Source of the DNA: Planctomycetales bacterium
GTDB taxonomy: Bacteria > 4484-113 > JAFGCY01
Length of the DNA: 32,000 nt
Direction: 5' to 3'
NCBI GenBank assembly: GCA_022646745.1
Contig: CP060262.1
Coordinates: 1,410,001-1,442,000 of the forward strand
Position numbers and translations under genes: made by a program. The notes under the pieces are model-generated. The model was not told where the DNA came from. It searched no databases and worked only from the letters and a program-made list of their open reading frames with translations. This document shows, piece after piece, positions 9,302 through 15,356 of this stretch; within the stretch, counting starts at the first letter, position 1; each line of letters starts with the position of its first letter.

Positions 9302-9946
9302 CTAGAAGAACCAGTCGTCGAAGATCACTGAGCCGGGCTCTGCGCCATACACAATGATGTGCGTCGCAGACTGCGCCTTATGTCCGGCAGCGCCTTCACG
9401 CAACAGCTCAAGGAGTTTTGCCTGAGCTTCCTCTGCATTGTCAAAGTGCTCGACGAACAGCGCGCCGGCCTGCCATTCCCTGGACTGGAAGTCCGTATAC
9501 AGCCCGTCTGTGACCGGGTCATACAGGTTGTTGTACAGGTTCAGGTTGCTGGCAGCAGAGTTGCCATCCGCATTGTCACTGACCAGGAATTCCGCCAGCA
9601 CCGCCTGTGAGTCTGCGGGCAGCGTACCGGTGCTGCGGTAGTATCTGCCGAGTAGTCCGGTTAATGTTCGCAGGCTGTGTTCAAAGCCGTTCTCGTCCAT
9701 CCAGGCGCCGAGCCTGATCTGCTCGGCCTCACTCAGCTCATGCCCCGGGCTAAGTTCGGCGGCGTCCTGCATGTTCCAGCCGATCCACTGGTACGGTCCA
9801 GGCCCGGCAAGTGATGGGTCACTGGCAATCGTCATGATGCGGCAGTCCTCATTGATGCCGTAGGCAGGCTCCCCGGCCTGCGGGGCTGTGATTGCCAGAG
9901 TCGCAATCAGCAGAGCAGCGGCGGCGGTTCTCAGCAGGTCTTTCAT
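9302..9946 (-). CDS. secreted protein, function unknown
   Basis: Signal peptide MKDLLRTAAAALLIATLAITAPQAG. GGGAGGG 4 nt upstream of the ATG. Convergent with the previous gene, 5 bp apart. Confidence 0.7.
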   Translation of the reverse strand: MKDLLRTAAAALLIATLAITAPQAGEPAYGINEDCRIMTIASDPSLAGPGPYQWIGWNMQDAAELSPGHELSEAEQIRLGAWMDENGFEHSLRTLTGLLGRYYRSTGTLPADSQAVLAEFLVSDNADGNSAASNLNLYNNLYDPVTDGLYTDFQSREWQAGALFVEHFDNAEEAQAKLLELLREGAAGHKAQSATHIIVYGAEPGSVIFDDWFF

Positions 9947-10053
9947 TTGTCCCTCCCCGGATGGTTGTTAGCAGTATAACAAGAAAGGGGGGGGTCAAGT
10001 CAGCTGCAAGGCTTCAGGACCTTGCTTGTCGGGGGTAGCGGCGCAGTCTCACT

Positions 10054-10108
10054 GCGCCTGAGAGTGCAAGCCGCGAAGTAATGAGCAATGAAGAGTGAGC
10101 AATGAGCC
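10054..10108. repeat. dispersed repeat family A, copy 1 (GAGCAATGA stutter)
   Basis: gcgcctgagagtgcaagccgcgaagtaatgagcaatgaagagtgagcaatgagcc, versus 23374..23429 gcgcctgggagtgcatgcaggtaagcaatgagcaatgaagaatgagcaatgaagcc. Confidence 0.8.
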
Positions 10109-10126
10109 TGACTGGCATTGAATTCT

Positions 10127-10154
10127 TCTGTGGAACTTTGTGGATCTCTGTGTC
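10127..10154. repeat. dispersed repeat family B, copy 1 (TCTGTGGA / CTCTGTG stutter)
   Basis: tctgtggaactttgtggatctctgtgtc. Related copies at 10761..10786 and 23912..23949. Confidence 0.8.
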
Positions 10155-10271
10155 AAACAAAGCCCAATCATCCATGATCCCATTAAAGTACCTGCGCACG
10201 CTTCGTGCGCATGGGAGTGCACGCCACGAAATAATGACAATTCAGTCATGAGCCAATCAATCATTTTCCGG

Positions 10272-10305
10272 CTCTGCGCCTCTTAATTCTCTGCGTCTCT
10301 GCGCC
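10272..10305. repeat. local stutter repeat (CTCTGCGCC words)
   Basis: ctctgcgcctcttaattctctgcgtctctgcgcc. Confidence 0.6.
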
Positions 10306-10505
10306 AGTAAAACCAGACTGGCGAGCACGCAGCTTCCCGCGCCACTGCGCGCCTCCGGAGTGTTGGCTGCATATCCCCCTGGTTCGTACCTTCACGCTTC
10401 ATCACGCCATGGCGAGATTCGACTGACGAGGAGGCACTGCCTGGCAGTCGGGCCTGGCAAGCTGCTGATTGGGCTTCGTGCCTTTGTGACCAGGCCAGCG
10501 CTGGA

Positions 10506-10535
10506 TTAACCACGAAGTCACGAAGACACGAAGAA
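10506..10535. repeat. local stutter repeat (CACGAAG x3)
   Basis: ttaaccacgaagtcacgaagacacgaagaa. Confidence 0.6.
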
Positions 10536-10613
10536 ATCATGGACATCGACGGATCATCCCCCGCCACGACTGGGAGTGGATGCCGCGAAGTGCTATTGGC
10601 AATGCGAAATGAC

Positions 10614-10665
10614 GTAGGGCGGCGGTAATACCGCCGCCGCGGATGGGGTTTTACCCCATCCCTAC
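10614..10665. repeat. two adjacent 9 bp GC-rich hairpins enclosed by gtaggg...ccctac (REP-like)
   Basis: Hairpin 1 at 10618-10638: ggcggcggt-aat-accgccgcc. Hairpin 2 at 10641-10661: ggatggggt-ttt-accccatcc. Outer gtaggg (10614-19) is complementary to ccctac (10660-65). Confidence 0.6.
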
Positions 10666-10760
10666 TTCACCTGTCCTGCGCTGCATATTGCCTCATTGCC
10701 AGATCTCGCGTGCAGGCGTTGCGGGGCAGCGCCGGTACTGTTTCTCATTCTGATTCTCTT

Positions 10761-10786
10761 TCTGTGGAACTCTGTGTTGAGAAAAC
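10761..10786. repeat. dispersed repeat family B, copy 2
   Basis: tctgtggaactctgtgttgagaaaac. Shares ctctgtgttg-gagaaaac with copy 3. Confidence 0.75.
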
Positions 10787-10891
10787 TGCTTCAAGCCAGC
10801 TCATTGCCATCCGAGTAAAGCGAGCTGCTCTGTCACTCTGATCGGGTCTGCTTTCCGCTCTCGGCTCCCTGCATGCTGCCGCAGGCAGCTC

Positions 10892-11344
10892 CTATTCCCC
10901 GTCGCCGTCCGTCTCCACACGCTGGCGGCGCAGCAGTTCCTGGATGCCGGCGGCGTCGATCTCCGCCGGGCGGGAGGCGGCGATGTTCTCTCCCTGGATC
11001 AGCTCGTAGATCTCATGGCGGTGGATCTGCACATGCCGCGGGGCCTTCACCCCGACGCGCACGCTCTCGCCCTTCACGCTGACCACCAGCACCTCGATCT
11101 GGTCCAGCCCGTCCAGCTCGATCACCACGGAGTCGTCCACCTTGCGTGTCAGGCGGATCGGGGACATCGCCCCGTCGTCGCCGCCGGGCATGGCATCAAT
11201 CTGCACATTGCCGGGCATCAGGGAGACGGGCCGGTCCACGGAGAAGGAGAATCTCACCACGCCGCGCTCAACGGAAAGCACCTCGACCTCGTAAGTGGGG
11301 CCGAGCATGATCTTCTCTCCCGGTTTGCGCGTCAGGACCAGCAC
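10892..11344 (-). CDS. csrA: tandem (fused two-domain) CsrA-family RNA-binding protein
   Basis: GTG start. Residues 1-50, MLVLTRKPGEKIMLGPTYEVEVLSVERGVVRFSFSVDRPVSLMPGNVQ, align with CsrA but lack the GVxAPxxVxVHRxEIY motif. Residues ~63-120, IRLTRKVDDSVVIELDGLDQIEVLVVSVKGESVRVGVKAPRHVQIHRHEIYELIQ, form a canonical CsrA domain. Total length is 150 aa versus ~60-75 aa for normal CsrA. Confidence 0.85.
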   Translation of the reverse strand: MLVLTRKPGEKIMLGPTYEVEVLSVERGVVRFSFSVDRPVSLMPGNVQIDAMPGGDDGAMSPIRLTRKVDDSVVIELDGLDQIEVLVVSVKGESVRVGVKAPRHVQIHRHEIYELIQGENIAASRPAEIDAAGIQELLRRQRVETDGDGE

Positions 11345-11399
11345 TACCCTGTCATTCTATCCCAAAATTAAATAATTAGGTATTTGGCCCGGGCCCGGC

Positions 11400-13562
11400 C
11401 TATTTCAGTTCGGAGAACTTGAGCCTGTCCTGCGAGTAGTCAAACTCGCTGCGCTCCGGCAGTTCGCCGTTCCCCCCCTCATCTGTATGCTGCGGGTACC
11501 AGTGGCTGACCATGTAGGCCGTGTTCTGCATGTACTTGTACAGGTTGCGCACGCTGCGCAGCACCTGCAGCCTGGTTGAGAAGTCAATGTTGCGGAACTC
11601 AATCGGCGTCTGCAACGGGTTGACACCATCCCCCGCGCCATCCTGGCCGGCCAGCGCCGGGTTCGTATCTGTCAGCTGCTTGCGGTCCAGCCTGATCCTC
11701 GCCTTGTCCGCGGCATCATCCGCCGGCTTGTTCTCGTCCCAGTAGCGGGTCGGGCCCTGGCTGTACTGCCCGCTGCGCAGCAGGTTGAGCGGGTCATGCA
11801 CGCTCTTGACCTTCTCCACCCAGTCCTCGGCATTGCGCTCGTCACGCGGCTTGCGCTTGTCGCCATCCCGCAAAAGCTCCGGCCGGCGCGGGTCGATTTC
11901 GTCCAGCGAACTGACAGGTTCGGCATCGCCGGCGGCCAGGTCCAGCCCGTCCGCCATGCTGCCATCCGCCAGGTAGGTGTAGCGGCTCTCGAAGTCCCAT
12001 GCCGCCTCGCTTCCGGTGAAGTTGAGGTCGGTGCCGGGGTTGCGCAGGTAGACCTTTCGCTGGGAGTAGTCGAAGGTGATCCCGCCGAAGTGCTGGGAGA
12101 TCATCGGGAAGCCGATCGCTCCGATCACTGGCCGGCCGCGGTAGTCATAGCTGCGCTCGTATCCTGCATCCACCACGCGGGCCGGGTAGTCCTGCCCGGC
12201 GAAGTTGATGTCCAGTTCCTCGAGGATGTAGCGCGGGGCGAAGCCGCCGGTCACGTCGCCGAGGAAGCCGTTCATCTTCAGGCTGTCGGCCAACTGGCGC
12301 TGCTCGACCCAGTCGAGGTTCATCGACAGCGGGGCACGCTGCCCGGTATCCAGCAGCAAGAGCGACGGGCCACTGTTGTTGACGTCCGCCTCAACGTGCG
12401 GCAGGTCGCGGATGAAGGTCAGCGCCAGTTCCTGGCCGCTGGGCCGTGCGCCTTCACCTGGCGGGTTGAGCGTCATCAGGCCCTGCTTCAGGTCGAGGTC
12501 CAGGCGGCAGAGCTGAAGCATCTCATTGCCGACGATGCCGTGGATGCGCATGTCCGCACCGTAGCCGAGGCTCGTGAGCTGCGAGCCGATCACCGGCATG
12601 TTGCGGAAGCTGACCCCGCCGACATCGAAGCCGAAGCCGTTGTACAGCTGCATCGAGTCCTGCTCGAGTGCACCGCCCACCTTAACGCTGCCCTGCGGGT
12701 GCAGGCCGGCATCAAGCTGCAGCACCAGCTCGTCCACGATCATCTGCTCAGCGCCACTGTCGAACACCAGGTTCAGCGGGCGGCCGTTGGGCAGCCGGGC
12801 CTGGAACACCAGCCAGTCCTTCACGGGCTTGATCGGCACCTGCTGGCTGCCGTCATTGAACTGCACGTACTGCGCCGGGTCGAACTGCGGCAGGCTGGGC
12901 AGGCTGGCCAGCTGCTGCGGGCTGTAGCTGATTTCATCGATGAAGTACTGGTAGAGTTCGCCGGCGGCATCGAGCACGCCGAAGTCGCCCGCCAGGGTAT
13001 GTCCGTCCTGCTCGCGGGTCTTGCCGAACACCACAAGCGGGGAGCCGCGGAACAGCGCGATCAGCTCGAAGCTGCCCTCGCCCTTCTCCATGCTGTCGAT
13101 CTGCAATGTATCACCGAGGTACTTCTGCCCAGACTCGAGGCTGTCCAGCTGGCCGATCACACGGCTGACGATGAAGTGGCGCAGCAGCGGGCTGTCGAAA
13201 CGTGGGAAGGCATCCGCCAGGCGCTGTGCCGTGCGCTTACCGTCTGACCAGATCGAGGGCATAGCGCTTTCTGTGCTGACCATCTGGGCCGGCATGCTGT
13301 GCCAGTTGAAGCTGTAGCTCTGGCCGACCAGCTCCTCATAGGCATTGCTGCCGAGGTCCACGCGACCGTCTACGTAGGAGATGTTCTGGCGTTCATCGTG
13401 CACCACGCGGGCACGGTAGGTGACGGAGCCGCTGTCCGCCCAGCTGCGGCCGGCAAAGATCAGTACACAGCCCAGCAGTATGGCAGCAGTGATTCGCACC
13501 AGCTTATTATAGGGGAACAGCCCGCCGCCGGGGCGGCTGGATCGGGATTTTGCACGCTTCAC
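11400..13562 (-). CDS. large secreted/membrane-anchored protein with two retropepsin-like aspartyl protease domains
   Basis: GTG start and an N-terminal hydrophobic anchor (ITAAILLGCVLIFAG). Two clan-AA-like lobes: LNLVFDSGAEQMIVD...IHGIVGNEML and LLLLDTGQRAPLSMN...VIGAIGFPMI. Basic/acidic C-terminal tail. Confidence 0.75.
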   Translation of the reverse strand: MKRAKSRSSRPGGGLFPYNKLVRITAAILLGCVLIFAGRSWADSGSVTYRARVVHDERQNISYVDGRVDLGSNAYEELVGQSYSFNWHSMPAQMVSTESAMPSIWSDGKRTAQRLADAFPRFDSPLLRHFIVSRVIGQLDSLESGQKYLGDTLQIDSMEKGEGSFELIALFRGSPLVVFGKTREQDGHTLAGDFGVLDAAGELYQYFIDEISYSPQQLASLPSLPQFDPAQYVQFNDGSQQVPIKPVKDWLVFQARLPNGRPLNLVFDSGAEQMIVDELVLQLDAGLHPQGSVKVGGALEQDSMQLYNGFGFDVGGVSFRNMPVIGSQLTSLGYGADMRIHGIVGNEMLQLCRLDLDLKQGLMTLNPPGEGARPSGQELALTFIRDLPHVEADVNNSGPSLLLLDTGQRAPLSMNLDWVEQRQLADSLKMNGFLGDVTGGFAPRYILEELDINFAGQDYPARVVDAGYERSYDYRGRPVIGAIGFPMISQHFGGITFDYSQRKVYLRNPGTDLNFTGSEAAWDFESRYTYLADGSMADGLDLAAGDAEPVSSLDEIDPRRPELLRDGDKRKPRDERNAEDWVEKVKSVHDPLNLLRSGQYSQGPTRYWDENKPADDAADKARIRLDRKQLTDTNPALAGQDGAGDGVNPLQTPIEFRNIDFSTRLQVLRSVRNLYKYMQNTAYMVSHWYPQHTDEGGNGELPERSEFDYSQDRLKFSELK

Positions 13563-13642
13563 TTTAATTCTGACGCGCCAGCCGCGGATAATATCGCGTC
13601 CGGGCGGCTTTTGCCTGTTGTGTTATACTCGGACTGACGGCC

Positions 13643-14101
13643 TTGAGTCAGGAAAACTCCAGTAAGAATCTCGACGCGGCATCCGATATAGATGTCCCTC
13701 CCCGAAGTTGGTCTGAGCTGATTTCGCTCGCAGAGGCGATGGCGCGCGGGCTGTTCCCGGCCGGGCAGGTGGCCCTGCGCGTGATGGATGACGATTCCAT
13801 CCGCCGCCTGAACCGTGAGTTCCGCAATGTGGACAGCGCCACGGATGTTCTTTCCTTCCCGGCCGACCCCTCCGACTACCCGCACCGCGGGGACCTGGCG
13901 CTCAGCTGGGATGCGGTGCTCAGGCAGGCCCGTGCCAACGGGAACACTGATGTGCAGGAGGCCTGTGCGCTGCTGGCGCACGGCATGCTGCACCTGGCGG
14001 GGCATGACCATCCGGACGATGCCGCCCAGGCGGAAATGGACAGGCTGACGCGCCTGATGTGCGCTGATGCCGGAATCAAGGTGGAAAACTTTGGACACTG
14101 A
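13643..14101 (+). CDS. ybeY: rRNA maturation endoribonuclease YbeY
   Basis: HGMLHLAGHDH zinc-binding motif, DVLSFP motif, 152 aa. Apparent TTG start. Confidence 0.9.
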   Translation: MSQENSSKNLDAASDIDVPPRSWSELISLAEAMARGLFPAGQVALRVMDDDSIRRLNREFRNVDSATDVLSFPADPSDYPHRGDLALSWDAVLRQARANGNTDVQEACALLAHGMLHLAGHDHPDDAAQAEMDRLTRLMCADAGIKVENFGH

Positions 14102-14117
14102 CGTACCCTTACAAGCC

Positions 14118-15356
14118 ATGCTGCTCCTCGACCAGATCTCCTTCACCGGGGGCGTGATGGTCGTGTTCGGCCTGCTGGCCTGCGCCGGCAGCGCACTCGC
14201 GGCAAACTCGGCGGTGGCCGGCCGGATGGCGCGCGTGCTGCGCCATGAAGAGATCCGCCGCACATTGGCCGGCGGCATCGTGCAGCTGCTGCTCGGCTTC
14301 ATCATCCTGTTCATCGGGCTGGGCAGCGTTGTCAACGCCGCCGCCACTGAGCTGAAGGACGCACTGGACCCGCAGTTCCTCGCGGCCAGTTCGCTGGAGG
14401 CCTGGGTGCTGGGCAGCCGCATCGCGCTGTCCCTGCTGCCGGCCGTGCTGCTGCCTGCGATCGGCGTGGTGGCCGGTGCCGTCAGCGCGCGCGGTGAGCG
14501 CATGACCTGGGGTATCCGCACCGGGCAGATCCTCGCCGAGGCATTCGCGAAATGGCTGCCGGCCGGCAATGCCAACGGTGAGGAGGATGAACCGGAGCCG
14601 GAGTTCCGCATCGACCTCGCCAGCGGCGAGGATGTCGAGCAGGAGGAGCGCGAGCTGATCGAGAACATCCTCGAATTCGGCGAGACCACCGCCTCCGAGG
14701 TGATGACCCCGCGCACGGACTTCGTGGCGATTGACAACGGCTGGGAGGGCCCGCGCATCATCGAGACCATCTCCGCCTCGCGCCACAGCCGCTTCCCGGT
14801 CTATGAGGACAGCATTGACAACGTGATCGGGATCCTGCACATCCGCGACCTGATGGAGTACCTCGCGCGCGGCGGTGCCAGTGAGCGGCTTGACCTGCGC
14901 GAGCTGGTGCGAGAGCCGGTGTTCTACCCGGCATCGAAGAAGATTGACGACGTGATGCGCGACCTGCAGCTGCGCAAGAGCCACATGGCGATAGTGCTCG
15001 ACGAGTACGGCGGCACCGCCGGGATGGTCACCATCGAGGACCTGCTGGAGGAGATCGTCGGCGAGATCCAGGACGAGTATGACGACGAGAGCCGCCAGAT
15101 CCACCGCATGGAGGACGGCAGCTGGATCGTCGACGCGCAGTGCCTGCTGAGCGACTTCAACGAGGAGCTCGGGGTCAGCCTCGAGGCCGAGGACGTGGAC
15201 ACACTCGGCGGCTACATTGCCAACTCGCTCGGGCGCATCCCGGAGGAAAGCGACACGGTGGACACCGGGGGCATGACACTCAAGGTGCTCAGCGTGGACC
15301 GCAACCGCATCCGCCGCGTGCGCGTCCAGCCGCATGGCGGCGCCAGCGTGGCCTGA
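14118..15356 (+). CDS. CNNM/DUF21 + CBS pair + CorC_HlyC domain protein (hemolysin/CorC family)
   Basis: TM-rich N-terminus, then [23 protein letters not shown] and [31 protein letters not shown] hallmark motifs. Follows ybeY as in the conserved ybeY-ybeX arrangement. Trimmed to ATG 14118. Confidence 0.9.

Follow-up and report, generated by a model that had tools for sequence, protein, structure and literature searches.

We propose that the 150-residue protein encoded in the window (the whole stretch of DNA analysed here, 32,000 nucleotides) is probably a single-chain, asymmetric CsrA pseudo-dimer that has one canonical GGA site and acts as a monovalent regulator. CsrA is among the best-studied bacterial post-transcriptional regulators, and its symmetric dimer with two sites underlies models of dual-GGA bridging, of cooperative sequestration by sponge RNAs and of 2:2 complexes with FliW. 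In the arrangement that we favor, domain 1 (D1), a CsrA repeat without the C-terminal helix, would pack on domain 2 (D2) as the two protomers of a CsrA dimer do, with some 12 flexible residues serving as the linker between them. One composite site (site A), made up of beta1 of D1 together with beta4, beta5 and the helix of D2, would be a canonical site for GGA RNA. The other (site B), made up of beta1 of D2 together with beta4 and the LMPG segment of D1, would be without R44, H43, E45 and the helix, and because of this high-affinity binding of GGA is not expected there.

Two CsrA domains in one open reading frame

The reading frame of the tandem CsrA is complete (Table 1) and the exact protein is present in NCBI (MCB1219229.1 / UNM09556.1; 'Planctomycetales bacterium' / 'bacterium', 4.11-Mb contig). 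Its residues agree with those quoted in the original prediction, MLVLTRKPGEK..., SFSVDRPVSLMPGNVQ and IRLTRK...VRVGVKAPRHVQIHRHEIY; no strand was given there, and the gene lies on the minus strand.

Scanned as a whole, the protein scores 93.6 bits against Pfam CsrA (PF02599) and 94.8 bits against TIGR00202, above the curated thresholds of these CsrA/RsmA profiles and with two matched stretches in each case. Scanned alone, residues 1–60 give 39.5 bits (E 5.7e-10, model positions 1–41 of 53) and residues 61–150 give 59.3 bits (E 3.7e-16, model positions 3–52), and as each half exceeds the Pfam gathering score of 27 bits by itself, neither can be a chance match. The original prediction had described two CsrA domains in one chain and had expected a CsrA profile to hit both of them, which is what we observe. 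Being above the Pfam threshold, the N-terminal half is a true CsrA repeat, and its match ends at the point where beta5 should start.

What had been said of the individual domains also stands. D1 keeps the beta1 signature, MLVLTRK being common to the whole family, and its beta5 is degenerate, L-M-P-G standing where the canonical H43-R44-E45 would be expected. D2 is canonical, a complete CsrA of the FliW type with beta1 to beta5 and the alpha-helix. The R44 motif (V-H-R-E-E) and the C-terminal helix are found in D2, as VQIHRHEIY and helix 110–124, and D1 has LMPG and no helix. As judged from these residues, it is D2 that places the tandem protein in the CsrA family, D1 being a divergent repeat.

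Table 1. Features of the tandem CsrA gene and its upstream flank (positions within the window)
Feature	Positions	Strand	Description	Basis
Tandem CsrA, complete ORF	10892–11344	minus	150 aa, GTG start, stop codon 10892–10894	
Domain 1 (residues 1–50)	11195–11344	minus	beta1–beta4 and degenerate beta5, without helix	Pfam, AlphaFold2, dN/dS
D1 beta1	11312–11344	minus	MLVLTRKPGEK, beta1 half of predicted site A	Conservation
D1 beta5-equivalent	11204–11227	minus	VSLMPGNV; L42-M43-P44-G45 in place of V42-H43-R44-E45	Alignment
Flexible linker (residues 51–62)	11159–11194	minus	AMPGGDDGAMSP	pLDDT, variability
Domain 2 (residues 63–125)	10970–11158	minus	Full CsrA, beta1–beta5 and alpha-helix	Pfam, AlphaFold2
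D2 beta5 and helix	10973–11032	minus	VQIHRHEIYELIQGENIAAS	Conservation
C-terminal tail (residues 126–150)	10895–10969	minus	Second predicted helix, low confidence, fast evolving	pLDDT, dN/dS
-10-like hexamer	11354–11359	minus	TAGAAT, 9 nt upstream of GTG start	
Conserved upstream neighbor	11400–13562	minus	720 aa, N-terminal hydrophobic segment, two D[ST]G motifs	Synteny

Predicted fold

An AlphaFold2 prediction of the monomer, run on a 59-sequence alignment of the family, has a mean pLDDT of 83.7 and a pTM of 0.69; averaged over successive ten-residue segments, pLDDT is 95, 92, 94, 93, 86, 64, 92, 90, 95, 95, 91, 80, 64, 67 and 56. Strands are predicted in D1 (pLDDT 86–95) at residues 2–6, 11–14, 18–26, 29–35, 40–42 and 49–51, and in D2 at 63–68, 72–76, 82–91, 94–100 and 107–109, followed by the helix at 110–124. 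Apart from this helix there is a single other, at 131–146, which belongs to the low-confidence tail (pLDDT 56–67), and linker residues 51–60 have a mean pLDDT of 64. The model is thus one of two five-strand CsrA repeats, with pLDDT above 90 in both, a single CsrA helix and a low-confidence linker, which is consistent with the original prediction, where modeling of the structure had been suggested as a check. A rearrangement of the RsmN/RsmF type was considered and rejected, as the model shows no helix before residue 110.

Comparison of the model with PDB chains by Foldseek gave no significant match, and single-chain comparison of this kind is uninformative for CsrA because a lone chain is one extended half of a dimer whose protomers interdigitate. 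The sole CsrA-family chains listed were those of RsmN/RsmF (4KJI and 4K59), at non-significant E values of 0.08–0.4. We infer intramolecular pairing of D1 with D2 from the confidence values, the secondary structure and the precedent of an engineered CsrA described below.

Conservation of one predicted composite site

In canonical CsrA both protomers contribute to each RNA site, one supplying beta1 and the other beta5, and L4 and R44 are critical for RNA binding, the R44A substitution abolishing both binding and regulation (PMC7652899). Across the 59 homologues these two elements are retained on opposite domains. In D1 the beta1 residues that contact RNA (L2, L4, T5, R6 and R/K7) are all present, column entropy over positions 1–10 is close to zero, and L2, V3, T5, R6, K7, P8, G9 and E10 are invariant or nearly so. 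In D2, R96, G98, A101, P102, R103, R109 and E111, which are the equivalents of R31, G33, A36, P37, K38, R44 and E46, are likewise invariant or nearly so in beta4 and beta5; the equivalents of R31, R44 and E46 show no exception and R103 is present in 58 of the 59 sequences. Within the helix N120, the equivalent of the FliW-contact residue N55, is at least 90% conserved, and N120 and A123 are both invariant or nearly so.

The elements that would contribute to site B behave differently. The D2 equivalents of L2–T5 vary, with an entropy of 1.3–2.7 bits over positions 1–5 of beta1; the L4 equivalent is V in 40 sequences, L in 12, F in four and I in three, and the T5 equivalent T in 36, S in 18, K in four and E in one. 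The R31 equivalent of D1 is also relaxed (K in 43, T in 10, R in three and S in three), and elsewhere among the site B contacts residues are either relaxed or replaced. Site B keeps R67-K68, the equivalents of R6 and R7, and it may have residual or altered RNA binding.

These patterns support, at the level of family conservation, a pseudo-dimer with one canonical GGA site, and the original prediction of a single intact composite site, formed from beta1 of D1 and beta5 of D2, is supported by the near-invariance of the site A elements and the relaxation or replacement of the site B contacts. Pairing of D1 with D1 and of D2 with D2 across two chains is disfavored, since it would predict a conserved beta1 in D2 and a relaxed beta1 in D1, and the reverse is observed.

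If this assignment is correct, the tandem CsrA would be a monovalent post-transcriptional regulator, engaging one GGA element per molecule. It may act by occluding a single GGA site, such as one that overlies a Shine-Dalgarno sequence, and occlusion of a single site is the means by which E. coli CsrA represses hfq, as cited in PMC7652899. It would be unable to bridge two sites on one RNA, and cooperative titration by sponge RNAs with multiple sites would not be possible.

A possible role for the second face

Two segments of the site B face are as invariant as the canonical residues of site A. L42, P44 and G45 of D1 are invariant and M43 is present in 58 of the 59 sequences; in the beta1–beta2 turn of D2, R67, K68 (58 of 59), V69, D70, D71 and S72 are invariant or nearly so. 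In addition, the beta5-equivalent of D1 (residues 36–50) has a dN of 0 in comparisons of the window with the related loci L002, L003 and L004, for which dS is 0.32–0.47, a degree of constraint that may go beyond the needs of a simple turn. The distant asymmetric tandems P0098 and P0155 have a related motif (LMPEG or VLPEG). These observations would fit a re-purposed site B, at which LMPG and R67-K68-V69-D70-D71-S72 together bind either a protein or some non-GGA RNA, binding of GGA being left to site A; the protein would then be a heterobifunctional adaptor. We consider this unlikely, however, as RK-V-D-[DE]-S is a normal beta1–beta2 turn of CsrA and its conservation could be purely structural, and the P-G pair may simply reverse the chain into the linker. 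Moreover, beta1 of D2 has been lost altogether in other asymmetric families (P0091, P0095 and P0126), as would be expected of a face that has no function. The broader proposal, that site B is newly evolved and tethers a GGA-containing mRNA to a second partner, and that monovalent single-chain CsrAs constitute an unrecognized class of natural regulator, is one that we put forward as speculation, and as rather doubtful.

Pairing within or between chains

The site-wise conservation described above is equally compatible with pairing of D1 and D2 in trans, and prediction of a monomer is blind to the distinction between cis and trans. A reciprocal domain swap, in which each D1 takes its D2 partner from another chain to give a dimer or a chain of tandem proteins, would place two A sites in each particle on flexible tethers, and bridging of GGA sites would be kept or even extended. 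It seems improbable nonetheless: the linker, at about 12 residues, equals in length that of the engineered Re-CsrA, which folds in cis, Re-CsrA is in solution a discrete unit of 12.5 kDa, two of which are found per CesT dimer (PMC5864733), and cis pairing is entropically favored. The pseudo-dimer formed within one chain is thus the reading that we prefer.

Conservation of the fusion and selection on both domains

When GTDB species representatives were scanned, nine genomes (loci L001–L009) proved to carry the tandem form, all of them metagenome-assembled and labeled UBP7, 'bacterium' or 'Planctomycetales bacterium', the remaining matches being ordinary single-domain CsrAs of Acidobacteriota, Bacillota or Actinomycetota. 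A protein search gave about 60 further clusters (90% identity) of 137–174 aa that cover the whole query. The fusion, for which a survey of taxonomic spread had been suggested, is accordingly conserved in nine related genomes and about 60 metagenome clusters. No interruption is seen in any of the nine reading frames, which all begin MLV[LV]TRKPGE; four of them (L005, L006, L007 and L009) start with ATG. Many automatic gene calls start instead at M13, giving a product of 138 aa, which removes beta1 of D1 and so hides the architecture, although the 12 codons before M13 encode an invariant CsrA beta1.

Selection was assessed from Nei-Gojobori dN/dS. Between the window and L002 the ratio is 0.017 for D1 (residues 2–50) and the same for D2 (residues 63–125), compared with 0.28 for both the linker and the tail; between L007 and L008 it is 0.003 for D1 and 0.007 for D2. 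Across comparisons the linker ranges from 0.17 to 0.45 and the tail from 0.28 to 0.40, and in the 59-sequence alignment the linker differs in both length and sequence. D1 is not a decaying relic, and purifying selection on it is as strong as on D2. Although a CsrA of 150 aa is unusual a priori and some gene callers prefer the 138-aa form, a frameshift joining two adjacent csrA genes, or a D1 that is a decaying pseudo-domain, can be dismissed with near certainty, since the same open frame recurs in nine independent genomes and some 60 metagenome clusters, D1 and D2 are equally constrained, an invariant beta1 precedes M13 and four genomes use ATG; the conservation of the uninterrupted frame is itself sufficient to exclude a frameshift or assembly artefact.

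The FliW question

The best PDB sequence match to D2 is 5DMB (E 1.2e-12), the CsrA of Geobacillus thermodenitrificans from its complex with FliW; aligned residues reach into the C-terminal extension, and N120 falls opposite N55. In CsrA, N55 is required for FliW binding and is reported to be invariant where both proteins occur (bioRxiv 10.1101/2020.07.02.184341). Having both N55 and the C-terminal extension, D2 is by its sequence of the FliW-type subclass of CsrA, and the tandem protein would have a single docking surface of the FliW type, made up of the N55 equivalent and the C-terminal extension. FliW was sought with a profile HMM built from eight fliW genes that adjoin canonical csrA: this eight-sequence model found none in the window or in loci L001–L009, and in a database search none of the 120 matches listed, of 263, was placed with a tandem-CsrA genome.

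Gene neighborhood

In all nine loci a 720-aa reading frame lies directly upstream of the tandem CsrA and is co-oriented with it, the gap varying from 41 to 133 nt. The tandem CsrA had originally been placed 56 bp downstream of an aspartyl protease gene in the same orientation. The orientation is correct, and the gap is 55 nt; as to the protease, the match to Pfam Asp_protease_2 is below the cutoff (22.5 bits, cutoff 24.3), although the protein has an invariant pair of D[ST]G motifs (LDSGA, residue 267; LDTGQ, residue 404). Further upstream is a divergent CorC/CBS gene, and downstream are a 374-aa protein of unknown function and an M48 peptidase. As all nine genomes belong to one lineage this synteny may be inherited rather than functional. 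A reading frame at 13559–14770 (403 aa, minus strand) might have formed an operon with the 720-aa gene but was not accepted as a gene, as it overlaps the well-supported CorC/CBS gene on the opposite strand and has a shadow-like translation.

A hexamer TA[GC]AAT is present 6–11 nt before the start codon in nine of nine related loci, within flanks that are otherwise divergent, and we infer that the conserved TAnAAT box may represent a -10-like element. A scan for consensus sigma-70 promoters and terminators around the gene found none on the minus strand. The gene-poor stretch of 945 nt downstream was considered as a source of a cis-encoded, GGA-rich sponge RNA; this was rejected because GGA counts equal the shuffled expectation in 10 of 10 loci. 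Nor is the motif enriched over the 300 nt that follow the gene, again in 10 loci, and Rfam gave no match to the 945-nt stretch at E values as high as 1. Neither flagellar genes nor tRNA genes were found in the 32-kb window, and no second csrA was found in about 150 kb of the related loci.

Other fused CsrAs

The original prediction had implied that fused CsrAs are rare, and this does not hold: they are numerous in metagenomes, where forms with two to four domains are common, and most are symmetric. A search of 1.84 billion cluster representatives with the family profile gave 22,861 CsrA matches at E up to 1e-3, of which only three, all from the tandem-CsrA family, were at E up to 1e-30. Of the 150 cluster representatives that scored best, 65 or more have at least two CsrA domains. 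We compared 63 two-domain representatives, all outside the set of about 60 homologous clusters, and 44 of these are symmetric, with R6 and R44 in both domains. R44 of D1 is lost in 10, R6 of D2 in eight and R44 of D2 in one, and beta1 of D1 is missing only in three N-terminally truncated reading frames, although the set was retrieved with the tandem-CsrA profile and is biased toward a canonical beta1 in D1 and beta5 in D2. The families P0091, P0095 and P0126 introduced above keep MLV[LI]TRK in D1 and [YFS]R[ED] in D2. Notwithstanding that the retrieval favors this very pattern, the losses among other fused CsrAs support the assignment of site A as the sole canonical site of the present protein.

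The symmetric tandems, such as P0084, P0096, P0097 and P0101, resemble the tandem CsrA in having two CsrA domains in one polypeptide, but differ in retaining beta1, beta5 and the helix in both domains, and they share little with it beyond the CsrA core. Presumably these are covalent dimers with two working sites. Domain-architecture listings in Pfam and InterPro probably already show CsrA-CsrA entries. We found no description of a natural fused CsrA in the literature searched, within which subscription journals are poorly covered, or in the 2026 NAR survey of CsrA diversity.

Discussion

The importance of the second site of CsrA has so far been probed only with laboratory heterodimers of wild-type and R44A chains or with the engineered Re-CsrA, and the tandem CsrA appears to be a natural counterpart of a construct that had previously only been engineered. 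A CsrA that is conserved and under purifying selection, and in which one site seems to have been given up, would indicate that monovalent regulation by CsrA is viable in vivo. The degree to which CsrA function needs bivalency could then be tested directly with a natural protein. If monomeric and single-site, as predicted, it may also be useful as a structural tool, since 1:1 complexes avoid the aggregation that occurs between bivalent partners, and as a part for synthetic post-transcriptional circuits.

Among the closest known systems is Re-CsrA, CsrA(1–44)-GGGGSGGGGS-CsrA(1–61) (Ye et al. 2018, Nat Commun, PMC5864733). On superposition its crystal structure (PDB 5Z38) matches the native swapped dimer, and to its one ligand site the N-terminal moiety contributes beta1' and the C-terminal moiety beta4, beta5 and alpha1. 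Like the tandem CsrA it has a helix-less N-terminal copy followed by a linker, in its case Gly-rich and of about 10 residues, and then a full-length CsrA, and this precedent supports by analogy a cis pseudo-dimer layout for the natural protein. The differences are that Re-CsrA was built artificially by joining two copies of one E. coli sequence, with R44 retained in the first (residues 1–44), and served as an aid to crystallization and not as a regulator, whereas the tandem CsrA is natural, with diverged copies, an invariant LMPG in place of V-H-R-E and a C-terminus of the FliW type.

A second comparison is with the heterodimer of wild-type and R44A chains, which, as predicted for the tandem CsrA, has one working and one disabled RNA surface per particle. 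This heterodimer was obtained in the laboratory from separate chains that differ by a point mutation, and it is neither covalently fused nor natural. According to PMC7652899, which cites Mercante et al. 2009, full repression of glgC requires both surfaces and CsrA bridges two sites that are 10–63 nt apart. RsmN/RsmF, like the tandem CsrA, belongs to the CsrA family with its structure rearranged, but is a single-domain homodimer with a helix inserted between beta2 and beta3. Finally, the FliW-regulated CsrA of Bacillota (B. subtilis and G. thermodenitrificans) is a homodimer of 74–83-aa chains with two RNA sites and two FliW sites, compared with which the tandem CsrA is one chain, with one RNA site and one FliW site predicted.

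Start of the tandem csrA gene

The nine related loci that carry tandem csrA (L001-L009, metagenome-assembled species representatives) provide insights into how the gene may be expressed. In every locus a -10-like hexamer, TA[GC]AAT, is situated 6-11 nt 5' of the start codon, and its retention at this distance despite diverged flanks suggests that tandem csrA is transcribed from a promoter of its own, into an mRNA with no leader or a very short one. GTG would be the start codon in the window's clade.

Automatic callers often place the start of tandem csrA at the internal Met13, giving products of 138-140 aa (P0002-P0005 and P0351-P0360 in the protein searches). As this start removes the invariant beta1 strand of domain 1, the tandem architecture is under-reported in database entries.

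Outside the window, the profile search returned many further multi-domain CsrAs in metagenomes (proteins P0084-P0216), for which no description was found in the searchable literature. Most of the metagenomic proteins are symmetric, with two domains and Planctomycetota-like VDIRGDKVRLG cores. P0169 (303 aa) contains four CsrA domains, and CsrA is also fused to other domains: in P0213, for example, the C-terminus is deaminase-like, while P0015 and P0019 end in zinc-ribbon tails.

Sequences 3' of tandem csrA

The gene-poor stretch beyond tandem csrA lacks a convincing ORF, gave no match in Rfam and tRNA scans, and showed no GGA enrichment when this was looked for. About 500 nt of it are missing from L001, a 99%-identical relative, and a CAGAG/CAGAA-rich tract is common to the window and L001-L003. 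By eye, the motif TTCG[CT]GGC.T.CACTC[CT]CA occurs three times on the minus strand, near 10587, 10228 and 10078. The stretch also includes a double hairpin (MFE -42.3 kcal/mol; z = -5.3 against shuffles), found with the same structure in L001 but missing in L002 and L003. This double hairpin probably terminates either a long 3' UTR or a small transcript distinct from csrA.

At the far end of the stretch, the region 5' of the 214-aa ORF is near-invariant across L001-L003 and contains TTGAC, a C8 run and TTTCTTGTTATACTGCTAACAACCATCCGGGGAGGGACAAATG. It reads as a putative promoter followed by a GGA-containing Shine-Dalgarno region, so that a single-site CsrA could conceivably target it.

Features in and around the tandem csrA region (window coordinates)
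Feature	Position	Strand	Remarks
214-aa ORF	9302-9946
Region 5' of 214-aa ORF	9947-10010	minus
Gene-poor stretch	9947-10891		945 nt
Two neighbouring GC-rich hairpins within an outer stem	10608-10671	minus	~220-280 nt past csrA stop
-10-like hexamer	11354-11359	minus	equivalents in L001-L009
720-aa ORF	11400-13562	minus	directly upstream of tandem csrA; homologues in same place in L001-L009
403-aa ORF	13559-14770	minus
CorC/CBS transporter gene	14067-15356	plus

Neighbouring genes

The 403-aa ORF overlaps the CorC/CBS gene on the opposite strand by ~700 nt and has an Arg-rich translation that looks like that of a shadow ORF; this leaves ~500 nt apparently non-coding between the divergent CorC and 720-aa genes.

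The 720-aa neighbour has a hydrophobic N-terminal segment and two D[ST]G motifs that are invariant in 9/9 genomes, LDSGA at residue 267 and LDTGQ at residue 404, and Pfam gives a single, sub-threshold retropepsin-like match. Judged from these sequence features, it may be a protease whose single chain forms two lobes, each corresponding to a retropepsin-like half. If so, it would be a second fused pseudo-dimer, adjoining tandem CsrA, itself the proposed single-chain version of the CsrA dimer.
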